This document shows, piece by piece, positions 1 through 40,144 of a DNA stretch of 64,000 nucleotides. The DNA lies in assembly GCA_025453495.1 (NCBI GenBank), contig JALOQM010000001.1, positions 90,732-154,731 on the forward strand, given 5' to 3'. Under the pieces are notes generated by a model. It saw only the letters and a list, made by a program, of their open reading frames with translations, did not search any database and was not told the origin of the DNA. Positions within the stretch are counted from its first letter, which is position 1. Each line of letters opens with the position of its first letter. A program made the translations under genes and the position numbers. Source of the DNA: Minisyncoccota bacterium (GTDB lineage: Bacteria > Patescibacteriota > Minisyncoccia > Phycocordibacterales > UBA9973).

Positions 1-197
1 CTGCCCGTGCAGTTGATGCGATCTACAAAAAATATGAAGTAGTGAATAAAAGTGTAATGAGTGAAGTAGAAAACATTCTCAAGCAAGTAAAAAAATCAAA
101 AGTAATTATTCAAAAAAACAAAGTTAGAGCAGACAAAATAAGAAAAATGCTGATTAAAAAATATTTTACTTTTTAATTTGTATCCTTGTATAATCAC

Positions 198-236
198 TAC
201 ACAAAATCCCCGCTTATTGCGGGGATTTTGTGTAGT
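198..236. terminator. Palindromic GC-rich hairpin flanked by A/T runs; bidirectional rho-independent terminator downstream of the minus-strand surface-protein gene
   Basis: Sequence ctacacaaaatccccgcttattgcggggattttgtgtag is a perfect inverted repeat with A-run and T-run flanks. Confidence 0.5.
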
Positions 237-239
237 GAT

Positions 240-2507
240 TTATATCAAGAAGTTTTTATCGATTACTCCCTTCTTCACCTCAAACGGTTCAGATGTATAT
301 ACCGGCACGTAGGAACCATCGGGATTTTTTACTTCGATTTTTGCATAATAGGTACCGTTCGGGACAAGCGCGTAGTACTGACCAAGCGCATTTGCGACCT
401 TGTGGATGATTTCAGGGTTGAGATTTGCTGAGAAGATACGCAAGATTGCAAATGAAAGTGGATTGCCGTACTTGTCCGTAAGCATACCGCGCTTTTTGCT
501 TTTCAAAAGTGTTTCTTTGAGAATGAAAACCACTGCATAAAGCACGACAATGCCGATATTGAGTGGCTCTGGAGCGACTGCAAGCGCGAATCCCGAGAGC
601 GCAAAACCAAACCAAAACAATATATTAGTAATACGAGAAATAATAAGATCACGCTTTGAATAAAATTTCATGAGATGTTGCTCGCGCTTTGCTGTCTCAT
701 TCCAGTCGGCACTGACCGGATCAAGTGGGATATTCTTGGTGATAACATCTCCTTTATTAAGGATGTCGATTGGACCACCAAAATACAAATCTGAATATAA
801 CTCATCACTTGCGCGACCAGAAAGATGTGCCGAAGGGAAGATATAATTTGTCTTATTTGCAACAATTGTAAACTGACCAGCATCGGAGAGAAATCCATAT
901 CGTCCATCAAGATCAGTGATGGAAGTAGTAATCTCACGACCATCAGCACCTTTAAGAACCACATATGCCGGATCAAGTGGCTGTTTAGTAACTGCATCGT
1001 ATACGGTACCCCATGGCTTACGCTTGCGGAATGCAAGCACCGAAAGTGCTGAACGCAACACTGAACCAGGTGTTGAGAGCACGGCACCAAGCGCACCGAC
1101 TAGAGCAACGGTCTTAAATGTAAGATCACCTCGTACTGTATTTATAAATGCGGCAAGATTCTCAAAACCTCGGAAAAGCACAGCGACTGCATCATCAAGT
1201 AGCGACGATCCAGTGATTTCTTCTGAGCGGCTTTCTAAAGGAACAGGCGAAGTCGGTTGCACTACAGCAGTAGATACTGGAGCAGCAACTGAAGGTTCAA
1301 TAGGCGGAAGTACGGGGATCTGAAGTGCTACTGTAGGACTTGTTGTCGGAGTAGTTGGCGAGATTACTGTTGAGGTGCTAGGAATTACAGATGTTGTCGA
1401 TATAACAGAAGTCGCTGAAGCTGTAGTTGTTGTAGAAGTTGCAGTTGAGACCGGTGAACCTCCACCAACTGATGATGGGGTGCTTGCTACTGATGATGAC
1501 GAAGAGCTTGATGTCGTCGTCGCCACGGTAGCAGCAGTATTTCCTCCTGGGCGCCATGCTGTCCGGACGCGAAACGGATCAGTTGCGCAGGTGCCAAGAG
1601 TATCACAGTCAAAAGCAATCCATCCAAGATTTTGACTCCATGCAAGACCCTGGAAAAAACCATCTCCATCAATTGTCACACCACCACCTGTCGGCGCAAA
1701 ATTAATCCATCCTGTACTTTGCCCCCATGCATATCCTGAGAGAGTACCGAACGCATCATTGAAGACACCGCCACCGATAGGATTCATAACAATCGGCCGG
1801 CCGTCTTGATCATATGCTGAGCCAGTCAAGAGATAATCAGAAACAACGACATCACAGTTTGTCAACTGACTTGTAGTAGTACTTGAAGCGACCGACGCCA
1901 TATCCACAGAGAAAAGATTTTCTGCGGTGTATTGTTCGACAGGAATGCCAGGTATTGCTTGTGTAATCGCTCCAACAATCTGAGCGCTGACGGAAGAGTA
2001 GATTTCATTTTGGTCAACAATTCGATATTTAACTGTGTATGTCTTATTTTCTGGAAGCCACTCAAAGTCAGAAAAGACAAGTGTGCCAGTTGCAACAAGG
2101 TCAGGAGACAAGATAATTGTCGGCGGATTGTTTTGATCTATTGACTCAGTAAAAGTGATGATGATCGAGAAAGGTCCTCCAGAAAGAGCATCAGTGATAG
2201 TCGCTGCTGAAACAGACACCGACTCAACACCCGGCACACCAACCGTCGGAACATTTTGTTGAAACGAACTTGTCAGAGAAAAATTCAATGAGGACGCCTC
2301 ACGAGAAAGAGTTTGTGCTGCGGTAGAAGAAGTATTTGCTGCAAGCGTCGAAGACGCGGCTGGACAGCCAAAATCGATATAGCTTCCATCAAGGACAACC
2401 TTTGCACGATAATCAACAGGATCGATATTTGTGGTTGCGACAGACATACTCGCGCTAAATGCAAAAAAGAGAATAAGAGCAATTAGTATTTCAGTTGTTT
2501 TTTTCAT
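240..2507 (-). CDS. Large secreted/surface protein (755 aa). It has a signal peptide, an Ala/Ser/Thr-rich linker, Trp-rich GWI(N/A)F tandem repeats, carboxypeptidase-regulatory-like beta-sandwich segments, and internal TM helices near the C-terminus
   Basis: N-terminal MKKTTEILIALILFFAFSASMS signal; long poly-S/T tracts; repeats YAWGQSTGWINF / LAWSQNLGWIAF; hydrophobic helices FWFGFALSGFALAV and IGIVVLYAVVFIL. Confidence 0.6.
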   Translation of the reverse strand: MKKTTEILIALILFFAFSASMSVATTNIDPVDYRAKVVLDGSYIDFGCPAASSTLAANTSSTAAQTLSREASSLNFSLTSSFQQNVPTVGVPGVESVSVSAATITDALSGGPFSIIITFTESIDQNNPPTIILSPDLVATGTLVFSDFEWLPENKTYTVKYRIVDQNEIYSSVSAQIVGAITQAIPGIPVEQYTAENLFSVDMASVASSTTTSQLTNCDVVVSDYLLTGSAYDQDGRPIVMNPIGGGVFNDAFGTLSGYAWGQSTGWINFAPTGGGVTIDGDGFFQGLAWSQNLGWIAFDCDTLGTCATDPFRVRTAWRPGGNTAATVATTTSSSSSSSVASTPSSVGGGSPVSTATSTTTTASATSVISTTSVIPSTSTVISPTTPTTSPTVALQIPVLPPIEPSVAAPVSTAVVQPTSPVPLESRSEEITGSSLLDDAVAVLFRGFENLAAFINTVRGDLTFKTVALVGALGAVLSTPGSVLRSALSVLAFRKRKPWGTVYDAVTKQPLDPAYVVLKGADGREITTSITDLDGRYGFLSDAGQFTIVANKTNYIFPSAHLSGRASDELYSDLYFGGPIDILNKGDVITKNIPLDPVSADWNETAKREQHLMKFYSKRDLIISRITNILFWFGFALSGFALAVAPEPLNIGIVVLYAVVFILKETLLKSKKRGMLTDKYGNPLSFAILRIFSANLNPEIIHKVANALGQYYALVPNGTYYAKIEVKNPDGSYVPVYTSEPFEVKKGVIDKNFLI

Positions 2508-2531
2508 TTTGTATTTTTTAGAAAGTGGTAC

Positions 2532-3269
2532 CTACAGTATACCTGTTAGCCAAGTAAAGATAAAGAAAATTGCTGGCGCAAAGTATTGCCAGATAAATAC
2601 CAAAAAGACAATGAGGAGGATAAACCCATAGCGCTCAAGCGCTGCCTCGATGGCATGAAATCGTGCTGGCAGAAGTGAGAAAAGTATTTTTGAGCCATCA
2701 AGTGGTGGTATTGGTACGAGATTAAAGACAGCAAGCAATATATTAAGAAACACAATCGTACCAATGAGAGAGATCGCGTGTTCATTGGCGATGCCATAGT
2801 GCGTAAGTATTCGCATCCCAAGTGCAAAGAGCACAGCTATCAATAGATTAGCAAAGATGCCAGCCGATGCGATGGCAAGAGTCCCCCACCGCTTGTTGCG
2901 CAGATTGTTTGGATTGTACGGGACTGGCTTCGCCCATCCAAAAACAAAGCCAGTTTTGGCAACAATCATAATGAAGGGTAAAATCACTGAGCCAAAAGGA
3001 TCGAGGTGTTTGATCGGATTGAGTGTCAGACGTCCAGCATTACGGGCTGTTGGATCGCCAAACATTTCTGCCACATATCCATGAGAAATCTCATGGAGTA
3101 TGACAGAAATAATAAGAATAATTATATAAAAGACAGCATCAAGCTCTTGCATATGTATAGGTTCCATGATAGCATCCTCACCACATATGGCAAAAATCTG
3201 TCCAATTACAAATAAAGGGCCAAAAAAGGCTGGCAAGTACGCAAACCGCACTCGTGCGACTATTTTCAC
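2532..3269 (-). CDS. Site-2 protease family (peptidase M50) intramembrane zinc metalloprotease
   Basis: HEISHG (HExxH) motif within a hydrophobic helix, LDGSK motif, multiple TM helices. Confidence 0.8.
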   Translation of the reverse strand: MKIVARVRFAYLPAFFGPLFVIGQIFAICGEDAIMEPIHMQELDAVFYIIILIISVILHEISHGYVAEMFGDPTARNAGRLTLNPIKHLDPFGSVILPFIMIVAKTGFVFGWAKPVPYNPNNLRNKRWGTLAIASAGIFANLLIAVLFALGMRILTHYGIANEHAISLIGTIVFLNILLAVFNLVPIPPLDGSKILFSLLPARFHAIEAALERYGFILLIVFLVFIWQYFAPAIFFIFTWLTGIL

Positions 3270-3465
3270 TCCTGTACCAAAGAAGTATAAATTGCCTAAC
3301 CTTCAGACAAAGACAATCTACGTGCCTGAGCTCAAGAAGTCTATGACATTGACTGCATCAAACAAGGGATTCCGCACTATCAAGAAAAACGGTGCTTTCG
3401 CAGCACTCACAAAAGCAGGAATCATCAAATAATGCATGACAAAAAGCGTCTTTCGGCGCTTTTTG

Positions 3466-4329
3466 TCATTTCCTCCAAAATGTTTTTCCGTCCGACTGTA
3501 TGACTATCGTCCCTTCTTCATATGTGATGAGTGTCGGGATATTGAGATTTTCCAACCGATGAAGTATTTCCTGTTTCGGTAATCCATACTTATTGTTATG
3601 ACCGACAGAGATAATCGCTAAATCAGGATCTACAGCTTCAAGAAATGAGATGCTTGATGATGTCTTTGACCCATGGTGTCCAACTTTTAATATATCTGAC
3701 TCTAGAGACTCTTTTGTATAATCACCTAATACAATTCTTTCTGTCTTTTCTGTCGCATCTCCAGTCAACATGACTGACACAAGATCATAAACAAGACGTG
3801 AGACGATCGATCCATCATTGCTCTTCCATGTCGACACATCCCTGTCGGGAAAAAGAATATCAAGATAAATAGTATGTTCTTCATCAAGCATAAAACGCAT
3901 CCCTTGCTTTGCAAGTAACGCATGTGTACCACGCTCTCGAACAGAATTTTCAAATCGCGCGAATGTATCTGTACCTGACTGAGTTCCAGGTACAATCACG
4001 GTACCTACGCGATATCGCTCGAGCACATCGATAAATCCAGCATAGTGGTCAAGGTCTGGATTTGTAACAACAAGCATATCTATTGATCGATCATAAAACG
4101 GCATAACTTTGCCAAGCTCAGAAAGAATTGCAGCATTTGGCCCACCATCGACAACAACCTGGGTACCATCGGGTGTCTCAATGTAAAGCGCATCTCCTTG
4201 TCCTATATCTAGAAAGCCAAGTGTCATATACTGTTTGTGCTCTATCTGCCAGAGTATCCACCAAATCAATATAGTCCCAAGCATGAGTATGATAAGCGCT
4301 CCTACTTTATATTTTTTTGTTTGCGTCAT
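3466..4329 (-). CDS. Stand-alone ComEC-type metallo-beta-lactamase-fold nuclease domain protein with its own N-terminal TM anchor
   Basis: N-terminal TM helix ALIILMLGTILIWWILW; MBL motifs LDIGQGDA, PDLDHYAGF, KVGHHGSK typical of the ComEC C-terminal domain. Confidence 0.75.
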   Translation of the reverse strand: MTQTKKYKVGALIILMLGTILIWWILWQIEHKQYMTLGFLDIGQGDALYIETPDGTQVVVDGGPNAAILSELGKVMPFYDRSIDMLVVTNPDLDHYAGFIDVLERYRVGTVIVPGTQSGTDTFARFENSVRERGTHALLAKQGMRFMLDEEHTIYLDILFPDRDVSTWKSNDGSIVSRLVYDLVSVMLTGDATEKTERIVLGDYTKESLESDILKVGHHGSKTSSSISFLEAVDPDLAIISVGHNNKYGLPKQEILHRLENLNIPTLITYEEGTIVIQSDGKTFWRK

Positions 4330-4379
4330 TTTTTTGCTCTAGGTATACTGTGCCTATTAGAAATCTAATTCACTATCGC

Positions 4380-4976
4380 ATGCAACAGTACGCCGAGAAA
4401 AAATTTACCATTCCTGAACTCAAAGGAATATCAGCAAAAAATATAGAAGAGCACATGAAGCTCTATACTGGCTATGTCAAAAATACAAACGGTATACTTT
4501 CGCAGATTGCGGAATTAACAAAAGATAGTGAAAAAAATGCCTATCTATTGGGAGAATTACAGCGACGCTTCGGATTCGAATTTGATGGCATGCGCAACCA
4601 TGAGTACTACTTCCGCTCACTTGAAGGAGGAGCACTACAGCTTGAAAGCGATTCTCTACTCAAAACTGCAATCGAGAAAGAATGGGGTTCATTTGATGAA
4701 TGGCTCACGCGTTTCAAAGCTGTTGCAATGACTCGTGGTATCGGTTGGGCAATGCTCTATTATGATAGACAAGAAAAAAGACTAGTAAATGCGTGGATTG
4801 ACGAGCAGCATCTTGGGCATCTCACTGGACTCTCACCAGTACTTGCACTTGATATGTGGGAGCACGCATACGTTGCTGACTATCAGCCAAGTGGGAAGAA
4901 GCAGTATGTAGAAGACTTTTTCGCTAATCTGAATTGGTCAGTAATTGAGGCGAATTTTAAAGAAGCAGATAGATAA
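4380..4976 (+). CDS. sodA: Fe/Mn superoxide dismutase
   Basis: Fe/Mn SOD signature DMWEHAYV and N-terminal metal-ligand His region; ORF-track start at 4317 is upstream of the conserved N-terminus, so ATG 4380 is preferred. Confidence 0.85.
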   Translation: MQQYAEKKFTIPELKGISAKNIEEHMKLYTGYVKNTNGILSQIAELTKDSEKNAYLLGELQRRFGFEFDGMRNHEYYFRSLEGGALQLESDSLLKTAIEKEWGSFDEWLTRFKAVAMTRGIGWAMLYYDRQEKRLVNAWIDEQHLGHLTGLSPVLALDMWEHAYVADYQPSGKKQYVEDFFANLNWSVIEANFKEADR

Positions 4977-5049
4977 CTCCACTAAACAAAACCCACTTTG
5001 ATCAAAGTGGGTTTTGTTATTTTAGATTTTTAGAGCTTAATTCAAAAAT

Positions 5050-6549
5050 CTACTGTAGCTTCTTAACAACATGTATGCTCTTTTCATTTCGCAGTACCCA
5101 CCATATAAGTAGTATATATATGCCGATCACGACAATAATTGGCATATGGCGGATAGTAATTGCAGAGAATGGCAAATCAGCAAACCACTTCACAACTGTA
5201 AGTATATAGTGCAATAGTCCATACGAAACAAAAGAAAATGGCAGTACTAGAATACTAGAAAGCATGCCTGTGACACCAGTCAAAAATCCCGAAAGCATTA
5301 CCATGGGAACAACCGGCAATACAAGCATATTTGCAGGAAGTGAGACAATCGAAAATACACCCGTCTTGTAGACAATCAGTGGAAATGTCGCAATCTGAGC
5401 TGCGAGTGTACCTGACAAAATATCTCGGATAGCAAAACGAGTGGTCACCCATCCGAGTTTCTCGTCTATGAGCGGCGAGAGATAGACGATGCCTAATGTT
5501 GCAAGAAATGAAAGTTGAAATGATACATCAGAGACAAGAATCTTTGGATTGATAGCAATCATGAGTGATGCTGCAAATACAAGTGCGCGTTCGACAGCAT
5601 ACGTCCGTCCGACATAGCGCGAAAGCACCAGGAGTACTGCCATGATTGATGCACGAAGTACAGTTGATCCACCACCTGCGAGAATTGCAAAGAGTGCAAT
5701 CGCAATAATCCCTGCACTTGATGCAAGCGCGATCGGCAAGAGTGCACACACACGCATGATCATCTCTGCGATAATCGTCACGTTGTAGCCGGAGAGTGCG
5801 ACCATATGGATCGTGCCAGTCTTTACAAAATCTTCCGTCAGAGATTCTGGGAACGATGCACGAGTACCAAGCAGTATCCCGAGCAAAAGCATGTCTTCAG
5901 GTGATGACACAGTACGAGAGATAGACGCAGCAAATGCGTGCTTGATTGTATAGAGACGTGTAACTATCCACGAACCATGTCCAGAAGAGATGTGTGTTAT
6001 GTCCGGGTTTTTTATACTGTAGTGTATGTTATCTTTTGCAAGATAAGAAACATAATCAAACTCCATACCAGAATCAGTCAGGAAATTTTTTGGCGCTGTT
6101 ACTTTCCCTTCTATACGGAGTAAGTCTCCATACGAAATAGTCGCATAGCGATCAGTAGAAATAATGAATTTTGTTTTTGTATCTATTGTTTCAACACCAA
6201 TGCGAGTGGGCTCTAATACAAAGCGAAGATTTTTTTCACGCATTTGTGGCTCATCGACGACAACTCCTTCCAGTACTATTTTCTGACCAAGTGACAGAGT
6301 ACTTGCCGATAAAGGTATAACCGAAGCTACTTGATTGTAACGAATACCGCCAAGCACTACCACAAAGGCACCAATCGCCATAAGTAAAAATATTTTTAAT
6401 TTTTTAGTAAGAAAAAAATAAATTAAAAAAACGGCGAGTGCCGCCGTGGTGATTTTGATGATTAGAGGCATCGGTATCGGTACATATGACCGAATCAATA
6501 CTCCGAGAATAAATGACAGGGTGATTGTATAAAAATAAATACTTCGCAT
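5050..6549 (-). CDS. comEC: ComEC/Rec2 DNA-uptake channel protein (DUF4131 OB-fold plus competence membrane domain), lacking the fused MBL domain
   Basis: N-terminal TM helices, then a periplasmic OB-like segment, then 8+ TM helices typical of the ComEC competence domain. Confidence 0.7.
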   Translation of the reverse strand: MRSIYFYTITLSFILGVLIRSYVPIPMPLIIKITTAALAVFLIYFFLTKKLKIFLLMAIGAFVVVLGGIRYNQVASVIPLSASTLSLGQKIVLEGVVVDEPQMREKNLRFVLEPTRIGVETIDTKTKFIISTDRYATISYGDLLRIEGKVTAPKNFLTDSGMEFDYVSYLAKDNIHYSIKNPDITHISSGHGSWIVTRLYTIKHAFAASISRTVSSPEDMLLLGILLGTRASFPESLTEDFVKTGTIHMVALSGYNVTIIAEMIMRVCALLPIALASSAGIIAIALFAILAGGGSTVLRASIMAVLLVLSRYVGRTYAVERALVFAASLMIAINPKILVSDVSFQLSFLATLGIVYLSPLIDEKLGWVTTRFAIRDILSGTLAAQIATFPLIVYKTGVFSIVSLPANMLVLPVVPMVMLSGFLTGVTGMLSSILVLPFSFVSYGLLHYILTVVKWFADLPFSAITIRHMPIIVVIGIYILLIWWVLRNEKSIHVVKKLQ

Positions 6550-6584
6550 GTGTTACATATCTGATACAAACTCCTTGATACAAC

Positions 6585-7307
6585 TCACAGTCCCCACTCA
6601 CGAATAATCGCTTCCTCATCTGCTTCGGAAAGTGCTTTCTTAAATTTCACTCCTGAGAGACTTTTGACACGTGCTTCACACTCTGCCCATGTCGCATGCT
6701 TTGCAAGCACACCATCGACAAGTGACAAGTACGAATACGCCTTGCCTTGACGTTTTGCAGGCATACCGGCATGCTCAGCAAATACACTACCGCCGATATG
6801 TGCGCTATATTCGTCGACCGTCCCATGGAAAAGCTCGACCTGGTTCTCATCAGCAAATGATGTAGCGATCACATCCGCGCGTTCATTGCCAAGATTACCA
6901 GAGTGGCCTTTGACTTTTTTCCACTCAAGAATTCCCTTTGCATTTCGCTCATGAGTGAGAAGCAAGAGTCGCTGCCACAAATCTTGATTCAAAACGGGTT
7001 TCTTCTGTGCAGTCATCCAATTATTTTTTTGCCATCCATGCACCCACAACGTGATGCCATTTAGTACATAGGCAGAATCCGTGTGTATAGTCACTCTGCC
7101 GATCACACCTTCAAGAGCAATCAGTGCTTCAATTACTGCTGTAAGCTCCATGCGATTGTTTGTCGTTTCACGCGCATAGCCGCCGATCTCGCGTACGATG
7201 TTTTTCTCGCGCCACACAATAACCGCACCAAAGCCCCCCGGTCCAGGATTACCAAGAGAGGAGCCATCAGTCCAGATAATTACATTTCTGTCGTCACTTT
7301 CATTCAT
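6585..7307 (-). CDS. rnhA: Ribonuclease HI with a C-terminal RNA/DNA hybrid-binding-like domain
   Basis: IIWTDGSSLGNPGPGGFGAVI catalytic N-terminus (DEDD RNase H); C-terminal KAYSYLSLVDGVLAKHATWAECEARVKSLSGVKFKKALSEADEEA resembles the Cauli_VI/RNase H1 HBD fold. Confidence 0.85.
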   Translation of the reverse strand: MNESDDRNVIIWTDGSSLGNPGPGGFGAVIVWREKNIVREIGGYARETTNNRMELTAVIEALIALEGVIGRVTIHTDSAYVLNGITLWVHGWQKNNWMTAQKKPVLNQDLWQRLLLLTHERNAKGILEWKKVKGHSGNLGNERADVIATSFADENQVELFHGTVDEYSAHIGGSVFAEHAGMPAKRQGKAYSYLSLVDGVLAKHATWAECEARVKSLSGVKFKKALSEADEEAIIREWGL

Positions 7308-7384
7308 ACTCTTTTTGTTTCACAAAATAATTTGTTCAATTGTCTTTCTGGATTTTATATAAAATACCAGCTACTAAATACTAA

Positions 7385-9130
7385 CTACTGTGTAATGTCT
7401 ACAATTCTAAGCCTGATCTCAGATTTGCGCAAAAATGTCGAAGACTCTATTGTCGCGAGAAGTTCCACTTTACTTCCCTCCTTGAGCGAAACACTGAAAC
7501 GCTCTGGCTCAGTAAAGAAACTAATTGCTTTTACCACACTACCGTCTGGTTTCACAAAACCTATCTCAAGATGTTCTTCTTGTTTGCCAAATTTTTTTAC
7601 ATAGCTGATTTCAGCGCTGTGAAACAAGAACACAGGCTTCGGATTGCCTATACCAAATGGCGCAAACGGTTCAACGCGTTTATATGTCTGCGCTGTGACA
7701 TCTGCGAGCGAAAGTATCGCTTCATAGGTGCCACCTTCGACTACTGCGACAGGTTTCTTCTCAAGAGTGGCGTGTGCCACAGAAAGTCGCTCTTCAAGGA
7801 AGTGCACACTCTCGTGCGAGACAGAAAAACCCCCAGCACCTGCATGTCCGCCAAAATCAAGAAACGTTCCTTCCCCCGCCGCCGTCATGAGTTCGACGAG
7901 GTTTGACCCGTCGCCCGAACGACACGAGCCTTTGATAGTGTCACTGCCTTCAAGTCCCCAGACAAAGACAGGCTTCTTGTGTTCATCTGCGAGTTTTCCT
8001 GCGACAAGTCCGAGAATACCAACGCGCCATACTGGTGAACCGATGACGATAACTGACTGCGCTTCTCGCTCTTTCAATTTCTTTTTTGTTTCTTTGATGA
8101 TAGTTGCGACAAGATATTTGCGTTCGTCGTTTATCTTCACGAGGTGATCAGCAAGCGCGCCAGCTTCATCTTCTTTTTCTGCAGCAAGTAATTCAAATGC
8201 CTTTCGTGGCGAGTCCATGCGCGACGCGGCATTGAGTCTCGGTGCAATCGTAAACGTGATATCTTCCTCAACGAGTCGCTCCGCATCGACTTTTGCTTTT
8301 GCAAAGAGCTTTCGCAATCCTGCACGACGATTCTTCTTGAGCACCTTCATGCCGAAATATGCAATCGCTCGATTCTCCCCTTGGAGCGGCACCATATCAG
8401 AAAGCGTGCCGATCGCCGCCATATCGAGCCACCATTTTTCTTCGCCGTCTTTGATCGTGAAAAATTCTCCGTACTTTTTTGCAAACGCACTCGCAAGCTT
8501 CCACGCGACACCCGCACCGCAGAGCATGTCGTACGGATAGTGATCATCTTCACGTTTTGGATTTACAAGTGCGTACGCATGCGGCACGTTGCCGTGCGGC
8601 AAGTGGTGATCAGTGATGATGACATCAATACCGTTTGCTTGCGCTTCAGCAACTTCATCCACATCAGTTGTGCCGAGGTCGACAGTGATGATAAGTTTCA
8701 CGTCTCCCTCAATCGCTTCTTTAATTGCTTCCATATTGAGTCCGTATCCTTCTTCGTGTCGATCAGGAATGTAGACTGCAAAATTTTCATATTTGATTTT
8801 TTTAAAGAGATCATGCAAGATCACCGACCCAGGAATACCATCACAATCATAATCTCCGTATATCAAAATTTTTTCATTTGCTTGCGTCGCTGCAAAGATA
8901 CGGACAATAGACTTCTCCATATCTTTCATAAGAAGTGGGTCATGAAGATCACGCTCATATGATGGAGTTAGAAATTGTTCAGCTGCTTCACGTGTCGTGA
9001 TTCCTCTATTTTGCAAGAGCGTCTGCACAAGCTCCGGATATCCGGCGAGTTCGTTGTCGGTAGTCATTGAGTCGAGTATAACATTGGCTACATAATTTTC
9101 CCCAAATTGTTTTAAATAGTTCTCGCACAA
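7385..9130 (-). CDS. recJ: Single-stranded-DNA-specific exonuclease RecJ
   Basis: DHH family motifs (YGDYDCDG, ITDHH), DHHA1-like C-terminal region. Confidence 0.85.
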   Translation of the reverse strand: MCENYLKQFGENYVANVILDSMTTDNELAGYPELVQTLLQNRGITTREAAEQFLTPSYERDLHDPLLMKDMEKSIVRIFAATQANEKILIYGDYDCDGIPGSVILHDLFKKIKYENFAVYIPDRHEEGYGLNMEAIKEAIEGDVKLIITVDLGTTDVDEVAEAQANGIDVIITDHHLPHGNVPHAYALVNPKREDDHYPYDMLCGAGVAWKLASAFAKKYGEFFTIKDGEEKWWLDMAAIGTLSDMVPLQGENRAIAYFGMKVLKKNRRAGLRKLFAKAKVDAERLVEEDITFTIAPRLNAASRMDSPRKAFELLAAEKEDEAGALADHLVKINDERKYLVATIIKETKKKLKEREAQSVIVIGSPVWRVGILGLVAGKLADEHKKPVFVWGLEGSDTIKGSCRSGDGSNLVELMTAAGEGTFLDFGGHAGAGGFSVSHESVHFLEERLSVAHATLEKKPVAVVEGGTYEAILSLADVTAQTYKRVEPFAPFGIGNPKPVFLFHSAEISYVKKFGKQEEHLEIGFVKPDGSVVKAISFFTEPERFSVSLKEGSKVELLATIESSTFLRKSEIRLRIVDITQ

Positions 9131-9219
9131 GTAATGATCGAGTGAAATACGACATCTACTTATAAATAAAAATTAAGCCCGACACGTTTATAGTGTCGGG
9201 CTTTTCTTATTGAATTTTT

Positions 9220-9717
9220 TTAGCGGAAACTCTTCAATGTTTTACTCCCACTGAAAAAGATTCCGACACTGAGCATCGGATTTTTATTCTCTGTTTTGAA
9301 CGGAGTTCCGAGTTCAACAAACATTGTCGAACTGAACCATTGAGCTGACCCCAGCCCAAGCATTGCCCCAACACCAATATAGCTACCTCGGTTATTGAAG
9401 TTTTTGGTTGCAACAGTATATAAAGACACCTGTTGCTGTTTAGGAATGCTTCGAAAAAGAAACATACCAAAAGAATTACTTCCAACAAAAAGTGATGTCC
9501 CGGCAGTGGCAGTCACAAATGTAGTAGTAAAGAAAAGACCGTTGACCTGTTGCGGTCTTTCGGCCCCAAATTGATACACAATCTGCGGGGCAAAGGTTGC
9601 TCCTACATTCCACCGTGCTCTTGAGGAAATGTTTGTATCAGATTGAACATTTGACTGTTGGCTCATTGCCAAGGTTGCGCATCCGAAGAACGCAATGAGA
9701 AAAAAGAGAGTTTTCAT
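9220..9717 (-). CDS. Secreted hypothetical protein (165 aa) with alternating-hydrophobic beta-strand pattern
   Basis: Signal peptide MKTLFFLIAFFGCATLAMSQQ; no recognisable catalytic motif. Confidence 0.5.
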   Translation of the reverse strand: MKTLFFLIAFFGCATLAMSQQSNVQSDTNISSRARWNVGATFAPQIVYQFGAERPQQVNGLFFTTTFVTATAGTSLFVGSNSFGMFLFRSIPKQQQVSLYTVATKNFNNRGSYIGVGAMLGLGSAQWFSSTMFVELGTPFKTENKNPMLSVGIFFSGSKTLKSFR

Positions 9718-9820
9718 TTTGAGGGAATTAATTGTTTACGAACTATTTCTATATATATTATATCAGATATAAATAGAAAGTCAATAATACAAAGATTCAT
9801 ATGTATGAAATAATCTATTT

Positions 9821-10231
9821 ATGGATTCTTGCCTATTTTGCAAAATTAGCAACGGAGAAATCCCGTCTACAAAAGTGTACGAAGACGATACCGTTTTGTC
9901 TTTTTTGGATATTCATCCAGTCAATATTGGTCACACACTAGTGATTCCCAAAAAACATTATCCAAATCTATATATGCTTCCGGATGATATCCTCAAAGAA
10001 ATGTCCCCAATGATCAAAAAAATTGCTATCGCTATCAAAGAAAGTCTCGGTTGTGACGGTATCAATATCGCTATGAACAATGACAGCGCTGCCGGTCAGG
10101 TTATTGACCATGCACATATTCACATTATTCCCCGCCACGAGGGCGATGGTTTCGCTCATTGGAAAGGAAAGAGAAAATATACTGAAGATGAAATAGCGCA
10201 AACCGCTATTGCTATAAAAAATCAGCTGTAA
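9821..10231 (+). CDS. HIT-family (histidine triad) nucleotide hydrolase
   Basis: DHAHIHIIPR histidine-triad motif. Confidence 0.85.
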   Translation: MDSCLFCKISNGEIPSTKVYEDDTVLSFLDIHPVNIGHTLVIPKKHYPNLYMLPDDILKEMSPMIKKIAIAIKESLGCDGINIAMNNDSAAGQVIDHAHIHIIPRHEGDGFAHWKGKRKYTEDEIAQTAIAIKNQL

Positions 10232-10250
10232 AAAAAATTATACTCTAGAT

Positions 10251-11024
10251 ATGAAAATAGTCTCTTGGAACACTAACGGCATACGCGCGACGTATAAACA
10301 AGGCTACTTCGAGCCAGTTTTTGCGAAGTTGAAACCAGATATCTTGTGCCTTCAAGAAACCAAGGCAGAACCCGAGCAGATGCCGGAAGAAGTCCGTAAT
10401 GTGAAGGGTTATTTCTCCTACTTTTCATACTCAAAAGTAAAAAAAGGCTACAGCGGCGTCGGCATCTACTCAAAGATTGAACCAAAAAAAGTCGAATATG
10501 GTATCGGTATTCCAAAATTTGACGACGAAGGACGTATTCTTATCGCACATTATGCTGACTTTGTGCTATTGAATGTGTATTTCCCAAACGGTGGCGGTGG
10601 ACCGGAGCGCCTCGCATATAAACTTGAGTTTTATGATGAATTCCTGAAGTTGATAAACAATCTTAAACGGAAAGATAAAAAAATTATTTTTTGTGGTGAT
10701 GTAAATACTGCTCATGAGGCAATTGATCTTGCTCGACCAAAGGAAAATGAAGAGAATACTGGATTCTTACCCGAAGAACGCGCGTGGCTCGATGAGGTGG
10801 TCGCCGCAGGCTATGTCGACGTATTCCGTCATTTCTATCCGACCAAAACCGGAGCCTATACCTACTGGGATATGAAGACGGCTGCGCGAGAGCGCAATGT
10901 CGGCTGGCGTATCGATTATTTTTTCACTTCTACAAATCTCTTACCTACGATAAAAGATATAAAAATCCACTCCAATATCTATGGGTCTGATCATTGTCCG
11001 ATTTCTCTGGAGATACAGCTCTAA
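10251..11024 (+). CDS. xth: Exodeoxyribonuclease III (AP endonuclease, Xth family)
   Basis: MKIVSWNTNGIRA start, QETK, GSDHCPISLE C-terminal motif. Confidence 0.9.
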   Translation: MKIVSWNTNGIRATYKQGYFEPVFAKLKPDILCLQETKAEPEQMPEEVRNVKGYFSYFSYSKVKKGYSGVGIYSKIEPKKVEYGIGIPKFDDEGRILIAHYADFVLLNVYFPNGGGGPERLAYKLEFYDEFLKLINNLKRKDKKIIFCGDVNTAHEAIDLARPKENEENTGFLPEERAWLDEVVAAGYVDVFRHFYPTKTGAYTYWDMKTAARERNVGWRIDYFFTSTNLLPTIKDIKIHSNIYGSDHCPISLEIQL

Positions 11025-11125
11025 AAAATTTATTGACTACAGAATATATTGTGTTATTATGTTTTCTACCTTGAAAAACAAGGTTAGTTCATTCAAAAAA
11101 ATGTCTCATTCTTAAAAAGAACACT

Positions 11126-11587
11126 ATGAATAACCAAGACTTATTTCAGATTGGTAGGCCGATTCTTACCAAGAAGCCTGATGGTACTGAATACCCTGAT
11201 CACTCAAACCACTATCCTGTAAAATTTGATACCGCTGTGACATGCGAAAGATTAAACGAATGTTTAGTAATATTGAGGGAAAAACACTACCTTGTTCCAG
11301 TTCCAGTAACTGAATTCAAAAACACAAGATATCCACGTGGCAAAAATTTTGTGCATCTTATTTTTGGCAATACAATGATTGGGACAGCAGACCCCATCGA
11401 GAATAATACTAGTATGCCTTTTTATATGGTTGCGGAAATCAAATGGAACGGAAAAATGAGCGAACCAAATAAGAATGGTTTACTCTTTAGAAGGACTGGG
11501 GTGCTCTGGAAAAGACACAAGATGCCAGTTCTGATGTTTATCAAACTTACAGATAGAGAAATTGAAGCTATGAATGATAATTCCTAG
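11126..11587 (+). CDS. Hypothetical protein (153 aa) with no recognisable motif, flanked by its own promoter region and two terminators
   Basis: Intact ORF with downstream hairpin terminators at 11651-11685 and about 11788-11808. Confidence 0.45.
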   Translation: MNNQDLFQIGRPILTKKPDGTEYPDHSNHYPVKFDTAVTCERLNECLVILREKHYLVPVPVTEFKNTRYPRGKNFVHLIFGNTMIGTADPIENNTSMPFYMVAEIKWNGKMSEPNKNGLLFRRTGVLWKRHKMPVLMFIKLTDREIEAMNDNS

Positions 11588-11650
11588 CCTAAAGTCGTGA
11601 GCATTACATAATCTGAAATATTGATTTAGCAATAAAAGTACTAACCACCA

Positions 11651-11685
11651 CAATCCCCGTCTGTTTTCATAGACGGGGATTTTTA
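11651..11685 (+). terminator. Rho-independent terminator
   Basis: aatccccgtctgttttcatagacggggattttt hairpin followed by a T-run. Confidence 0.6.
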
Positions 11686-11808
11686 AAATGAAAATATTCA
11701 ACGCTCTAGAATTGAGATAACAATTAATTGAAAGCAAAAAAAATCTGTAGAAGTTTTCAAAACCTAGTATATCTATCACAAAACACTCCCTTTATGGGGC
11801 GTTTTTTA

Positions 11809-13281
11809 TTACACGAAATGTTTTTTACGAATCGCGGCAAGTTCTGCTTCTTCAGCTTCTTCTTTTTTTTCTTTACCCTTATCACCAAGAGATCGTAGCT
11901 CGATATCAGATAATGCATCTAGTTCTCGTGCCCGCTCTACAAGGTACTCAGGAGTATTTTTACTATCATCCGTTAGACATTCTTCAAGCAAAGCGTGGAG
12001 CATCCACCCCATTCGTGGACCTGGTTGTATGCCGATTTCCATAAGTTTTGCCCCATCGATTTTGAGCATACCGACAGATGTTGGTGCGCGCAATGCTTCT
12101 TCAATCATGGCGTGATATTTGCGCAAACGATAGGGTGCCTCTTTTTTCTTCATACCCACACGATCGCACTCTCGAACCTCCATGAGATCCCAAATATTCT
12201 CACGCCCGACATTCACAATCGTTCTTCTGACAGCAGAAAGAGTAATTTGTTCTGTGTCTGAGAAAAACATGTGGTGTCTGACTAGTTTTTCTACTTTCTC
12301 CCCCGTTTCACGTGAAAATTTCAAACGCTCCATAATTTTTCGCACCATACGAGCACCGACAACTTCGTGACCGTAAAACGTATATTTTCCTCTCCCTCCA
12401 GCTTTTGATCCATCCCACCGCCTGGTTCGAGGCTTTCCAATATCGTGAAACAAGGCGGAAAGACAAATATCAAATGGCTTTTCTTTTTGAGCTGCATGGT
12501 CAAGTGCATGCAGCATATGCTCAAAAACATCATAAATATGCTCACCTTTCTGCTCAACACCAACCCCTTCTTCTAATTCTGGAATAAAGTACTTGAGAAG
12601 ACCGTACTTATGAAGCAACCGAATTCCCTTTGCTGGTTCACGTGAAACTACTATTTTGGTGAACTCGTCACGGATTCGCTCGATAGAAATAGCTTTAATC
12701 AAATGACTATTTTCGACAATAGCTCTTTCTGTGATTGGATCAATCTCAAAACCGAGCTGGACAGCAAATCTCACCGCTCGAAGCATACGAAGTGCGTCTT
12801 CTCTAAAACGCTCATTTGCATTCCCTACTGATCGGATAATTTTGTCTTTTATATCTTCTTGTCCTTTATATAAATCAATTATTTGTCCTTTAGAATCAAG
12901 TGCAAGTGCGTTTATTGTAAAATCTCGTCTTTTAAGGTCATCTTCTATATTTTGGCTAAAAATTATGCTGTCAGGGTGCCTATTATCACTGTATTTCCCT
13001 TCTATACGAAATGGTGTAACTTCTATTATTTTTGCTGTTTCATCACTTACTGTTTCATGAGTAACAGCAACTGTACCAAAAATGTTCTCATACACAGTTT
13101 TCGGAAAAAAAGAGATAATTTGCTCGGGAATCGCATTTGTTGTTATATCCCAATCCTTGGGTTTTCTATCCATAAGCAAATCACGGACACATCCGCCGAC
13201 CAAGTATGCCAAAAAACCCTCATTTTCGAGAGTTTTTGTTACTTGTGAAACTTCTACTGGAATGAAAAATTGATGTTTCAT
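11809..13281 (-). CDS. cca: CCA-adding tRNA nucleotidyltransferase (PolyA-pol head domain plus HD domain) with a K/E-rich C-terminal tail
   Basis: GGCVRDLLMDRKPKDWDITT nucleotidyltransferase motif, HDIGKPRT HD motif; start set at MKHQFF (13281) because the longer ORF (to 13416) would overlap tRNA-Arg. Confidence 0.8.
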   Translation of the reverse strand: MKHQFFIPVEVSQVTKTLENEGFLAYLVGGCVRDLLMDRKPKDWDITTNAIPEQIISFFPKTVYENIFGTVAVTHETVSDETAKIIEVTPFRIEGKYSDNRHPDSIIFSQNIEDDLKRRDFTINALALDSKGQIIDLYKGQEDIKDKIIRSVGNANERFREDALRMLRAVRFAVQLGFEIDPITERAIVENSHLIKAISIERIRDEFTKIVVSREPAKGIRLLHKYGLLKYFIPELEEGVGVEQKGEHIYDVFEHMLHALDHAAQKEKPFDICLSALFHDIGKPRTRRWDGSKAGGRGKYTFYGHEVVGARMVRKIMERLKFSRETGEKVEKLVRHHMFFSDTEQITLSAVRRTIVNVGRENIWDLMEVRECDRVGMKKKEAPYRLRKYHAMIEEALRAPTSVGMLKIDGAKLMEIGIQPGPRMGWMLHALLEECLTDDSKNTPEYLVERARELDALSDIELRSLGDKGKEKKEEAEEAELAAIRKKHFV

Positions 13282-30530: not shown

Positions 30531-30596
30531 TAGTAGTCATATACGTACTATGGGCATACGCGAAATTGCCATACTCTGATACAATAAAGTGTATTA

Positions 30597-33500: not shown

Positions 33501-33632
33501 AGAAAAGAGAAACAAGAAGAAATCGCGGCTCTTGGTAGGGTAACAGAAGATCAGAAAAAACGTATAAGCGAACTTGAAAAGAAAGAAGGAGATCTTGAAA
33601 AGCTCCGAGAAAAGATAGACAAACTTAACTAG
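30597..33632 (+). CDS. VirB6/TrbL-like polytopic inner-membrane protein (1011 aa) with an N-terminal secreted domain and a K/E-rich coiled-coil C-terminal tail of about 450 aa
   Basis: Signal peptide; about 270-aa exodomain; at least 7 TM helices (e.g. IFFIFVLVYIAFKLILGV, TIIIVGVLINFSLFF, FLAPIFLFFIYLIIAF); Gly-zipper AGAGLAVATAGAGFA; C-terminal heptad-like KKKYE/EKKEGDLEK repeats. Confidence 0.55.
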   Translation: MNRLKRKIKSGFKHFVLTLVLLGVTFASLFSSPLQVHAADSMQEVFPATSSSDSGVGDILPIGTVPYSGRDGDEYIINENNLSLTLEGTPTSQTVTFKMNLRLGGDSIQGINPGRNGNNTLYDEEEDLGSWQSIYDTNSDGSWPPTSDSGRGIWLDIGTSVAPGQASVGFGSPPIAPVINDLVQEYDLATLINFRYTSQEINITVGTAAGLTPNTQYYARIRVEESDSTDNAYSKIVGFKTGAAGDTGEQSEEITASLTQSEINNEGQLIDLLDCGISTIFTDCLVIGFYYLFYVPSSWILRAAGWLLDAFVTFSISTKVYSDPSFITEGWKIVRDIANIFFIFVLVYIAFKLILGVSGSDVKRMLTTIIIVGVLINFSLFFTKVVIDSSNILARIFYQQIQITGTEGRAITDASKLGVEEKSLSQAIVSGVSVNKMLSDETITKLRTMNWHSTSSTFLIIILGLIVNLVTAWTLFMSALFFIGRIVALWVAMIFSAFAFMSNIAPDWFKQIPMINWSSWFSDLLKVSFLAPIFLFFIYLIIAFVNSKFLDGLLLKANDFDFTQLLVSIMLQFGILIVLIQKAKDIAEKLAGDTAGAAVSAIKKGASAVGSVVAGAGLAVATAGAGFALRGTLGRYAADQMNSEEYKKKMAERIEKGGVRGWLAQRELKSYESFSNASFDARGSKRFQSALTRFGGATGININTGTGHEGGHLSDKEKKEKEHLAMVELLRSKKSDEEWMESLSEDDPEKKKYMDAKKKYETEKAVFDEYENKYREAYEAAKNLPGFNLDKFRIDYEKANGKAPDAPKEVKASDYVDVSKINKERELKYARYLRENTLRAKIERATGDGDLLGTERSAQLSAAKKIEREAAMTEKSSVSMSKLARAAEQAEYDIGRLNREIEAHQTKYSGTPEEVKQKITLEINTAKNELKDIDLNAEMMKQKYESVKKKGGNTARQAYIAWQAAEDKRKEKQEEIAALGRVTEDQKKRISELEKKEGDLEKLREKIDKLN

Positions 33633-33649
33633 CCAGATAAGAAAAAATT

Positions 33650-34339: not shown

Positions 34340-34404
34340 CAAAATGCCCGTAGTTTGCGGGCATTTTGCTTTGCCGGCAGTGGAAGATACCATATAATGA
34401 ATAT

Positions 34405-34842: not shown

Positions 34843-34849
34843 CTAACAT

Positions 34850-35488: not shown

Positions 35489-35489
35489 T

Positions 35490-37538: not shown

Positions 37539-37570
37539 GAAAAGCAATGTTTTAATGGTATACTCTCTGT

Positions 37571-37996: not shown

Positions 37997-38022
37997 CTGC
38001 ATATAAGTGATATAATCAAAAC

Positions 38023-40135: not shown

Positions 40136-40144
40136 TTAATCATT

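Follow-up and report, generated by a model that had tools for sequence, protein, structure and literature searches.

Does a ComEC channel that lacks its nuclease domain do without a nuclease, or can that domain be encoded by a second gene close by? DC-type ComEC, i.e., ComEC without the nuclease domain, accounts for almost half of the sequenced ComECs (Pimentel & Zhang, 2018; Silale et al., 2021), and the fate of the non-transforming strand in these nuclease-less forms is an open question (Silale et al., 2021). In the CPR, the ComEC family has been reported not to be fused to a metallo-β-lactamase (MBL), the fusion being essentially absent (Meheust et al., 2019). The question is raised by a locus in a 64-kb stretch of DNA (hereafter, the window), for which an earlier note, made from the sequence alone, had proposed a ComEC divided over two genes, one for the channel and one for a membrane-anchored MBL nuclease that stands alone.

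Two genes match complementary parts of ComEC

The channel gene (5050–6549, minus strand) is listed among the open reading frames as encoding 499 aa. A Pfam scan of this protein identified DUF4131 (PF13567, 6.5e-20), which covers the OB fold (aa 26–181, nt 6007–6474), and the Competence channel domain (PF03772, 4.1e-50; aa 225–488, nt 5086–5877), and found no Lactamase_B. By hydropathy, three hydrophobic spans lie within aa 1–72, and the final hydrophobic span (aa 461–489) is followed by a short basic tail, RNEKSIHVVKKLQ. The aromatic motif of the OB helix, DYxxY, is retained as DYVSY (aa 165–169) and corresponds to the Y169/Y172 motif of the ComEC structure (PMC13539106). Considered alone, this gene belongs to the DC type. 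The second gene (3466–4329, minus strand; 287 aa in the same list) encodes the C-terminal part: a basic N-terminus, MTQTKKYK, one transmembrane (TM) helix, and an MBL domain of the ComEC type at aa 35–287, with a Lactamase_B match in Pfam (5e-12). The distribution of domains over the two genes is thus as the earlier note had described it.

On the model TIGR00361 (ComEC_Rec2), the channel protein matched positions 65–415 of 663 (E 2.7e-24, 85.3 bits), and the MBL protein matched positions 419–661 in one contiguous stretch over its aa 15–271 (E 1.2e-35, 122.8 bits). The two matches are complementary and abutting; their bit scores sum to 208, and the equivalog cutoff of 190 is reached by neither. 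Because there are two reading frames, each below that cutoff, we file the locus as a split variant and not as a canonical ComEC/Rec2. In HMMER alignments with the solved 801-aa ComEC 30bt_A, the channel protein covered residues 8–488 and the MBL protein residues 509–791, and both proteins were also colinear with five full-length ComECs from metagenomes, of which one is named Anaerolineae. The AF2 model of the MBL protein (pLDDT 93.8) had as its best match in the PDB the MBL domain of ComEC, 9ic4 (E 2.3e-25, TM 0.86, rmsd 2.4 Å); the next family in the fold search followed at 5e-15 (Pce/CbpE, ten orders of magnitude worse). By sequence profile and by predicted fold the MBL is therefore of the ComEC type, and not the glyoxalase II- or RNase J-like hydrolase that the earlier note had named as the outcome that would speak against its proposal. 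The complementary profile matches, the colinear alignments and the fold match to 9ic4 all support the proposed split.

The anchor of the MBL protein and the cut site

Hydropathy placed the TM anchor of the MBL protein at aa 7–30 (4240–4311, minus strand), within a helix modelled by AF2 at residues 2–30. In the HMMER alignment, residues 7–33 fall on residues 509–535 of 30bt_A, i.e., on the TM segment just ahead of the MBL domain, and we read the anchor as the probable equivalent of TM11 of full-length ComEC. The N-terminal TM helix reported in the earlier note is thus present, but it is not private to this protein. The TM span occurs in 231 of 239 stand-alone homologues, with a net charge of +2.2 before the span, and basic residues lie on both sides of the cut point, in the channel tail and in the N-terminus of the MBL protein. 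The predicted topology of the MBL protein is that of an N-in/C-out anchor. In cryo-EM of ComEC, TM11 comes after a cytoplasmic helix, leads through a flexible linker into the MBL domain, and was not seen in the map of one protomer (PMC13539106); given these three features, the cut site is structurally permissive.

Metal-site residues of the MBL domain

The residues D46, D61, D92, D94, H95, N171, D191, H218 and H219 are invariant in the best 120 homologues of the MBL protein (46–70% identity, all 248–338 aa long), showing that the protein is under constraint. Motif II reads N90-P-D92-L-D94-H95 (4045–4062, minus strand), where canonical ComEC has H-x-D-x-D-H. Its first position is Asn in 112 of the 120 homologues and His in the other 8, while D92, D94 and H95 are each present in 120/120. 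The residues that mark a ComEC-type MBL in motifs II–V (Asp, Asn171, Asp191 and His) are all in place, the sole departure being the His>Asn change in motif II (N90). Alanine at the two corresponding Asp residues of motif II abolished nuclease activity in Moorella ComEC and impaired transformation in B. subtilis, and ComEC of S. pneumoniae, in which the CTD is possibly inactive, has the same His>Asn change (PMC8579336).

An antisense SOD gene lies between the two halves

The stop codon of the channel gene and the start codon of the MBL gene are 720 bp apart. Between them, as the earlier note had said, an intact Fe/Mn superoxide dismutase (SOD) gene (4380–4976, plus strand, 198 aa) runs antisense to both halves, so that its 3′ end faces that of the channel gene and its 5′ end that of the MBL gene. 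The open reading frame on the plus strand spans 4317–4976; the likely start is the ATG at 4380, and the JGI gene call likewise gives 198 aa. Sod_Fe_C was matched at 1e-24 and Sod_Fe_N weakly (22.2 bits vs. a cutoff of 27), and the best PDB match was the Aquifex Fe-SOD 1coj (1.5e-25), in the alignment with which the protein appears to retain the canonical His, His, Asp, His metal ligands.

A palindromic terminator-like hairpin with a 15-bp stem, AACAAAACCCACTTTGATCAAAGTGGGTTTTGTT, occupies 4985–5018, in the gap where the channel and SOD genes converge, with a T-run inside or behind the stem on both strands; it is a candidate bidirectional terminator. The start codons of the SOD and MBL genes are separated by a divergent spacer of only 50 bp (4330–4379). 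Judged from the hairpin and this spacer, the two comEC halves are separate transcription units, and the MBL promoter must be located in the spacer or at the beginning of the SOD gene. A consensus scan of 4330–4400 found no clear minus-strand sigma-70 site for the MBL gene, the overall count being that expected from shuffling. The equivalent spacer in relatives has a median length of 57 bp and often carries a –10-like hexamer 5–7 nt before the MBL ATG. As a side observation, the divergent SOD/MBL spacers often have overlapping –10-like boxes beside both start codons.

Upstream on the same strand are recJ (7385–9130, minus; TIGR00644, 2.6e-150) and rnhA (6585–7307, minus; RNase HI, 4.7e-51). The gaps are only 77 nt from recJ to rnhA and 35 nt from rnhA to the channel gene, so the three genes may form one operon and be co-transcribed. 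On the downstream side, Pfam/NCBIfam and the JGI calls place rpmB, encoding L28, antisense at 3166–3432 (plus), and an M50 site-2 protease gene at 2532 to about 3152 (minus). A second terminator-like hairpin (3436–3469, 13-bp stem) lies between the MBL gene and rpmB, whose 3′ ends face each other. An Rfam gathering scan of positions 1–12000 gave zero ncRNA matches, and tblastn found no second copy of ComEC or of the MBL within the window.

The split arrangement is common to a class-level clade

To place the locus among its relatives, we compared 80 species-representative loci from Parcubacteria/Paceibacteria, of which 76 have at least 0.9 kb of upstream sequence. A fused ComEC was found in 0/80 loci, and the channel gene was found upstream of the MBL gene, on the same strand, in 63/80. 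The halves match complementary parts of TIGR00361 and the pair is syntenic in dozens of species, which puts a split ComEC beyond chance. The order of channel gene, antisense SOD gene and MBL gene was the majority pattern (46 of the 76 loci), so the SOD insertion, which the earlier note had left as possibly lineage-specific, is not peculiar to this genome but holds for most loci of a class-level clade. Among the 57 loci with a gap between the channel and MBL genes, 50 have an antisense SOD-homologous reading frame in it; across the 80 loci, a DedA/VTT gene occupies the SOD slot in 4, and the channel and MBL genes are directly adjacent in 5. Channel, SOD and DedA genes were all unseen in the available upstream sequence of 10 of the 76 loci, which indicates that linkage of channel and MBL is not obligatory. 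The order recJ-rnhA-channel is conserved in most of the 80 loci, as is, on the other side, the MBL gene followed by antisense L28 and M50. At a Terrybacteria-like locus, the channel and MBL genes are 30 bp apart, and the pair is located among genes for RNR, ThyX, NDK and dCMP deaminase. An independent assembly (L002) has an MBL-gene locus identical to that of the window.

The nearest fused forms include an Anaerolineae ComEC. In a neighbor-joining tree without support values, fused forms are basal, together with the Moorella outgroup, and stand-alone forms derived; two stand-alone proteins (P0232 and P0251) fall among the basal fused forms in this same tree, so more than one fission is possible. 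In the gene tables of Southlakia, a naturally transformable member of the Saccharibacteria, ComEC is a DC-type protein of 482 aa, and a ComEC-type MBL is not among the annotations, which list only one MBL-fold protein, of 211 aa (PF13483). Thus, a nuclease partner is not universally required in the CPR.

Discussion

We consider it probable that ComEC has been naturally split here by an ancient gene fission and that the anchored nuclease works in trans at the mouth of the channel. This reading draws on the homology of both halves, the position of the break, the predicted topology, the conservation of the metal ligands and the clade-wide synteny. The ancestral protein would have carried everything on one polypeptide, from three N-terminal TM helices and the OB fold through the competence channel to TM11 and the MBL nuclease, and the cut would have fallen in the cytoplasmic TM10-TM11 loop. 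Gene 1 (the channel gene) would then supply the OB fold and channel, and gene 2 (the MBL gene) would supply TM11 and an Mn-type MBL nuclease. Since TM11 would act as an N-in/C-out signal anchor, the nuclease would sit at the outside of the membrane, just where the fused protein has it. From there it may diffuse in the membrane and bind the channel non-covalently at its outer mouth, using the interface between OB loop and MBL known from full-length ComEC, so that the two halves would associate physically. The docked nuclease would degrade the non-transported strand and the channel would import the other, for transformation and/or nucleotide salvage. The two genes are read as separate transcription units and, in most of the clade, have the antisense SOD gene between them, with a very short divergent spacer that it shares with the nuclease gene.

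An alternative that we hold to be unlikely accepts the origin of the MBL by ComEC fission and makes of it an independent surface DNase, which would break down DNA from the environment or from a host so that nucleotides can be scavenged, with neither docking nor strand selection. The CPR lack nucleotide synthesis and are thought to be DNA scavengers (PMC6744442), and secreted tandem ComEC-like MBL proteins are known elsewhere (P0144); the separate transcription of the two genes, the 10 loci in which the surroundings of the MBL gene showed no channel gene, and the neighbors of the Terrybacteria-like pair would suit such an enzyme as well. However, the channel and MBL genes have remained syntenic in the majority of species-level loci at only about 40–50% protein identity, the anchor that was kept is TM11-like and not a cleavable signal peptide, and the OB aromatic motif is conserved at the channel mouth. 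Nor does the His>Asn change of motif II make it anything but very unlikely that the MBL is catalytically dead or much weakened, and serves only as a DNA guide or scaffold while another nuclease degrades the second strand, as EndA does in S. pneumoniae. NPDxDH does replace HxDxDH in nearly all of the close homologues, and Silale et al. (PMC8579336) name Asn for His as one of the changes of the pneumococcal CTD, which may be inactive. Motif II of that CTD, however, additionally carries Asp>Glu, and its motif IV carries Asp>Asn, whereas here the Asp pair of motif II, Asp191 of motif IV and the HH of motif V are all invariant. Furthermore, the ancestral stand-alone forms are H-type in the neighbor-joining tree without support values, so the fission would have preceded the substitution. 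In active MBLs of subclass B2, Asn at the corresponding position is a metal-site residue, which likewise argues against a dead enzyme.

It is most improbable that the 287-aa protein is unrelated to ComEC and nearby only by chance, whether as some other MBL hydrolase or as an effector of phage defence (Avs1a, LmuA, DRT or 6A-MBL type). Defence models do give partial matches (LmuA 74 bits, RTasMBL 69 bits, Avs1a about 44–45 bits), but these fall in two partial stretches and are weaker than the contiguous 123-bit match to ComEC_Rec2, and the best fold match is to the MBL domain of ComEC. Around the MBL gene there is neither a protease nor a STAND or RT partner; its neighbors are SOD, L28, M50, RNase H and RecJ, and this neighborhood is a conserved housekeeping synteny that includes the channel gene. 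Identity as a defence effector was rejected, the PADLOC/NCBIfam matches being partial and that to Avs1a reaching 44 bits vs. a cutoff of 420. There is practically no chance that the split arose from misassembly, from a frameshift or from recent pseudogenization of a fused comEC; we found no point in favor of it. The halves are set apart by a complete, conserved and oppositely oriented SOD gene and by two terminator-like hairpins, the independent assembly has the identical MBL-gene locus, and the split, with its own start codon on each half, recurs in dozens of species. The intact SOD gene, the second assembly and the many split species together refute it.

An ancient fission with the nuclease acting in trans, our preferred reading, leaves the protein close to full-length ComEC/Rec2 of Moorella/Neomoorella (PDB 30bt, 9ic4) and B. 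subtilis, which agrees with it in the three domains, their order and the predicted topology. Also shared are the ComEC-specific ligand set, in which motif II has Asp instead of His and motif III has Asn, and the OB aromatic motif. In contrast, full-length ComEC is one polypeptide and its motif II starts with His, whereas here there are two genes, probably cut in the TM10-TM11 cytoplasmic loop and transcribed separately with the antisense SOD between them, and motif II starts with Asn. The difference from DC-type ComEC, in which the nuclease is lacking, is that here a separate gene at a distance of 0.7 kb encodes it with a membrane anchor. EndA and NucA are also membrane-anchored, EndA being a ββα-Me nuclease unrelated to MBLs. 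Their analogy with the present protein is functional, i.e., a separate, N-terminally anchored extracytoplasmic nuclease that would process DNA at the ComEC channel; EndA of S. pneumoniae and NucA of B. subtilis are competence nucleases that act beside ComEC (PMC8579336). Unlike EndA, the protein in the window would be the nuclease domain of ComEC itself, freed by fission. The anti-phage MBL effectors (Avs1a, trypsin-MBL modules, LmuA-MBL and the DRT RT-associated MBL) have the ComEC/Pce-like MBL fold in common with it and are stand-alone DNases, but they are cytoplasmic, with protease or sensor partners and inhibitory loops, whereas the present protein has a TM anchor and housekeeping synteny with a channel gene.

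Public annotation already calls some of these proteins ‘ComEC’. In the full text of the ComEC and CPR literature, a scope outside which most subscription journals fall and in which absence is not proof, we found no description of a split ComEC, and the literature examined does not link DC-type ComEC to a separately encoded MBL. In a large part of the Parcubacteria/Paceibacteria, the nuclease would have been relocated to a second gene with its own membrane anchor kept, and surveys of domain architecture that score the Competence-containing protein alone under-count the systems equipped with a nuclease. The natural cut at the TM10-TM11 loop offers a design for splitting ComEC in model organisms, through which the importance of covalent tethering of the nuclease could be probed, and the channel and nuclease parts become separately expressible for biochemistry. 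The gain is a modest one, in that a known machine is refined and no new machine is added.

That a separately encoded nuclease might mean ‘modular regulation’ of DNA import, as the earlier note proposed, is speculation. We regard as quite doubtful a wider version of it, in which the ComEC nuclease of Parcubacteria is a dissociable subunit with a supply governed separately from that of the channel, its dosage is co-regulated through the head-to-head pair with SOD and with an oxidative-stress or Mn/Fe response so that it switches modes of DNA handling, and many ‘nuclease-less’ ComECs of other phyla have overlooked ComEC-derived nucleases in trans. If it were true, changes in nuclease dosage could toggle DNA handling between strand-selective import for transformation and bulk degradation at the surface for nucleotide salvage. 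Elsewhere in the window, the pilB and T4SS-like genes listed in the earlier note are indeed present: 53711–55408 encodes a PilB/T2SSE ATPase, and 35490–40135 carries TraG/VirB4-like P-loop and T4SS-pilin genes.

ComEC is divided between two genes

The channel gene (5050-6549, minus strand) encodes a 499-aa protein in which Pfam recognized DUF4131 (6.5e-20) and Competence (4.1e-50) domains and no metallo-beta-lactamase (MBL) domain. The 287-aa product of the gene at 3466-4329, on the same strand, carries a Lactamase_B domain (5e-12), and the plus-strand ORF between them, which starts with the ATG at 4380, encodes a 198-aa protein matching Sod_Fe_C (1e-24) and, weakly, Sod_Fe_N. The three ORFs are thus as first noted. 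Given its alignment with the Aquifex Fe-SOD 1coj (1.5e-25), in which the four canonical metal ligands have matching aligned residues, the middle gene is on sequence grounds an intact Fe/Mn superoxide dismutase (SOD). At the channel mouth, the OB helix of the channel protein still has its aromatic DYxxY motif (aa 165-169). The window belongs to a metagenome-assembled genome of Candidatus Pacebacteria/Paceibacterota (Patescibacteria, CPR). The 287-aa protein is 100% identical to the NCBI entry ‘MBL fold metallo-hydrolase [Candidatus Pacebacteria bacterium]’; it is encoded on a JGI contig of 211 kb and, independently, on a Logan contig.

The earlier note had proposed that ComEC is split here into a channel gene and a stand-alone MBL nuclease gene, and three independent tests support this. 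The NCBIfam profile ComEC_Rec2 (TIGR00361; 663 positions, cutoff 190 bits) matched the channel protein over positions 65-415 (2.7e-24, 85.3 bits) and, adjoining this stretch without overlap, the MBL protein over positions 419-661 (1.2e-35, 122.8 bits); each match scores below the cutoff while their sum exceeds it. Aligned to the solved 801-aa full-length ComEC 30bt_A, the channel protein covers residues 8-488 and the MBL protein residues 509-791, and the same colinear split was seen on five full-length ComECs from metagenomes (623-797 aa), among them one named Anaerolineae ComEC. The AlphaFold2 model of the 287-aa protein (pLDDT 93.8) had as its closest structure 9ic4, the crystal structure of a ComEC beta-lactamase-like domain (E 2.3e-25, TM 0.86, rmsd 2.4 A), followed by the Pce/CbpE phosphorylcholine esterase family (5e-15), with RNase J, RNase Z and true beta-lactamases far behind. 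The MBL protein is therefore the missing part of ComEC by profile, full-length alignment and predicted fold. That it might be an unrelated MBL hydrolase of the glyoxalase II or RNase J kind was ruled out, because TIGR00361, 30bt_A and 9ic4, the best match, all point to ComEC.

In an alignment of 120 homologues of the MBL protein (46-70% identity), D46, D61, D92, D94, H95, N171, D191, H218 and H219 are invariant. D92 and D94 match the aspartates of motif II, whose replacement by alanine abolished the Mn-dependent nuclease activity of the Moorella domain and lowered B. subtilis transformation 10-100 fold; the motif III Asn is ComEC-specific (PMC8579336). The sole departure is at the first position of motif II, where 112 of the 120 homologues have Asn (NPDxDH) and 8 have His. 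The same His>Asn substitution is among the changes of the possibly inactive pneumococcal domain (Silale et al., PMC8579336), but that domain also lacks two acidic ligands, both of which are retained in the MBL protein of the window.

The break lies in the loop before the last transmembrane helix

The N-terminal transmembrane (TM) helix of the MBL protein, which had been described as private to it, is not an addition: HMMER aligned it (residues 7-33) with ComEC 509-535. According to the cryo-EM study of Neomoorella ComEC (PMC13539106), the protein has 11 TM helices, TM10 and TM11 are separated by a short cytoplasmic helix, and the competence and MBL domains are connected by a flexible linker; the map of one protomer lacks TM11. 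We read the anchor helix as TM11, a numbering that no source ties to the residues of 30bt_A. The last hydrophobic span of the channel protein (aa 461-489) is followed by a basic tail, RNEKSIHVVKKLQ, and the MBL protein opens with MTQTKKYK, followed by a hydrophobic span at 7-30. Since the channel protein ends after its last span and the MBL protein begins with basic residues and then a span, the break on this reading falls in the cytoplasmic TM10-TM11 loop. The basic residues that flank the cut on both sides fit the positive-inside rule; the anchor would be oriented N-in/C-out, with the MBL domain on the outer side, where it also lies in fused ComEC. Of the stand-alone homologues whose N-terminus is complete, 231/239 have a TM span, preceded by a mean net charge of +2.2.

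The split arrangement is conserved in many Patescibacteria

The best 120 matches among 5.8 billion proteins were all 248-338 aa long, and those named to an organism came from Patescibacteria, Paceibacterota or Nomurabacteria. Among the best 150 representatives in a library clustered at 50% identity, nearly all were about 285 aa long, and five were fused ComECs. One homologue from this library, P0144 (721 aa), is secreted or lipoprotein-like and combines a tandem pair of ComEC-type MBL domains with a C-terminal extension, which shows that in other contexts ComEC-derived nucleases also exist without the channel.

When one genome per species was scanned, >581 relatives were confirmed, and neighbourhoods were counted in the best 80 loci, all of them from Patescibacteria (Nomura-, Kaiser-, Taylor-, Yonath-, Campbell-, Vogel-, Wolfe-, Sung-, Nealsonbacteria and others). 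None of these 80 loci holds a fused ComEC. The arrangement of the window, with channel, antisense SOD and MBL, recurs in 46; in 4 the antisense gene is a DedA/VTT-domain gene (VTT confirmed). The channel gene directly adjoins the MBL gene in 5 loci, where stop and start codons overlap and the reading frames differ, and lies upstream with other content between in 8. At 3 loci SOD or DedA adjoins MBL and the channel is outside the available upstream sequence, which at 4 others is shorter than 0.9 kb; in the remaining 10, neither channel nor SOD nor DedA was found in the available sequence upstream of MBL. The conserved wider order is recJ, rnhA, channel, antisense SOD, MBL, antisense rpmB and M50 protease.

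A neighbour-joining tree of the MBL domain (Moorella root, without support values) placed fused forms at the base, followed by a grade of His-type stand-alone sequences and, nested within it, an Asn-type clade; two stand-alone sequences fell among the basal fused forms. One Terrybacteria-like locus, which has the ancestral His-type motif, carries a channel gene (505 aa) and an MBL gene (295 aa) on the same strand, 30 bp apart. The simplest history is that a fused ancestor underwent fission with the genes still adjacent, and that an antisense gene, SOD in most lineages and DedA in one, was then inserted, the His>Asn change arising along the way. SOD is thus the majority state of a class-level clade (46/76 loci with at least 0.9 kb of upstream sequence), and its insertion is not specific to this genome, which answers the question of lineage specificity raised in the earlier note.

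In one subclade (L041, L051, L064, L068; also L046, L054) the antisense slot holds a DedA/VTT membrane protein of ~196 aa (PF09335, 4.8e-16) in place of SOD. Antisense genes that differ in kind but are of similar size have thus come to occupy this slot on at least two occasions. Locus L048 has an ORF homologous to the DedA/VTT gene and a second ORF, both between channel and MBL.

The genes for RecJ, an ssDNA exonuclease, and RNase HI (rnhA) lie directly upstream of the channel gene in the window (6585-9130, minus strand; gaps 77 and 35 nt), an order kept in most of the 80 related loci, and the three may form an operon joining ssDNA import to ssDNA degradation or processing. The 240-aa RNase HI has a C-terminal extension of ~80 aa (6585-6830, minus strand) with a weak match, below cutoff, to the RNase H1 hybrid-binding domain (Cauli_VI, E 0.0026), a domain whose usual place is N-terminal; the extension is kept in about half of the related loci (matches to query residue ~238).

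The two halves belong to separate transcription units

The convergent channel and SOD genes are separated by a palindromic hairpin with a 15-bp stem and T-runs on either strand (4985-5018), and a second hairpin (3436-3469) separates the MBL gene from rpmB; this stretch is enriched in terminator-like sites (11 observed, 3.4 expected). The MBL and SOD start codons stand head to head, 50 bp apart, and the MBL gene therefore needs its own promoter. A consensus scan of the window found no promoter for it. Among relatives the median length of the SOD-MBL spacer is 57 bp, and some spacers measure only 8-21 bp. Across loci L003-L082, the 80 related loci, 33/80 MBL start codons (41%) are preceded by a -10-like hexamer that ends 5-7 nt upstream and often has a TGn extension, against 22.6% of 1,040 other starts of ORFs of at least 150 aa (Fisher p = 3.5e-4). 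Of the ORFs of this size, only 4.5% have a Shine-Dalgarno-like motif before them. These patterns in the sequence suggest leaderless transcripts and overlapping divergent promoters, and that leaderless mRNAs are common in these Paceibacteria. The MBL gene of the window itself departs from the -10-like pattern, with 12 extra nt before its ATG.

A nuclease that may act in trans on the channel

Taking the fission, its break point, the predicted topology, ligand conservation and synteny as demonstrated, we propose that the anchored nuclease would bind the channel protein non-covalently at the outer face of the membrane. Docking would use the small conserved interface between OB loop and MBL domain that, in full-length ComEC, sets the active site at the channel entrance, and the nuclease would break down the non-transported strand while the other is imported. 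The main rival explanation keeps the fission and has the nuclease working alone, as a surface DNase for nucleotide scavenging; the conserved linkage of the MBL gene with the channel gene speaks against it. On the Terrybacteria-like contig (L083, 1-12888) the adjacent channel/MBL pair lies amid genes for a class II-like RNR, ThyX, NDK, NUDIX and dCMP deaminase, surroundings that fit a link between DNA uptake and nucleotide salvage. Together with the upstream recJ, this neighbourhood fits a salvage role for the whole system. A nuclease docked on the channel would differ from trans-acting enzymes of the EndA/NucA type in that the trans enzyme is here the ComEC domain itself.

Pimentel & Zhang (2018) based their classes of ComEC architecture on the Competence-containing protein alone and did not mention split genes; Meheust et al. 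(2019) reported that CPR bacteria essentially lack a ComEC fused to an MBL domain, and Silale et al. (2021) left strand degradation in ComECs lacking the C-terminal nuclease domain as an open question. The words ‘split’, ‘stand-alone’ and ‘separate’ are absent from the 2025 and 2026 NAR papers on ComEC, and our full-text literature search found no description of a split ComEC. JGI annotates many of the 287-aa proteins as ‘competence protein ComEC’ and NCBI as ‘MBL fold metallo-hydrolase’; annotation pipelines thus recognize the split form in part. It is no new kind of system, but a well-known machine in a confirmed split-gene variant, which is conserved throughout a large uncultivated clade and which the literature searched apparently does not discuss. 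For that clade it gives part of an answer to the explicit question of strand degradation, and it could serve as a natural model for dividing ComEC in experiments.

In the naturally transformable Saccharibacterium Southlakia epibionticum ML1, ComEC is a 482-aa protein of the DC type, without the nuclease domain (supplementary gene tables of PMC10633639, SEML1_0132-0134 and SEML1_0777). The same tables list a 211-aa MBL-fold gene (PF13483) immediately upstream of an antisense rpmB and a site-2 protease gene, in the same syntenic slot as the ComEC-type MBL gene of the window.

Other transfer and surface genes in the window

The earlier note had also listed an orphan pilB and T4SS-like genes, and both were found. 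The PilB/T2SSE ATPase (53711-55408, minus strand; 5.9e-120) lies apart from the T4SS-like cluster, and no pilus genes were identified adjoining it. The cluster (27855-41716, plus strand) encodes a TraG/VirB4-like P-loop ATPase (35490-37538), a T4SS_pilin + NlpC/P60 protein (39017-40135) and a PG-binding protein (40145-41716), all on the plus strand, along with two large proteins of 891 and 1011 aa that had no Pfam match; it resembles the Patescibacteria T4SS of PMC12102498. Downstream of the M50 protease, a 755-aa protein (240-2507, minus strand) combines a long Ser/Thr/Pro-rich low-complexity middle with hydrophobic spans; its only match was a weak CarboxypepD_reg-like one (6e-4), and it is probably a surface protein.
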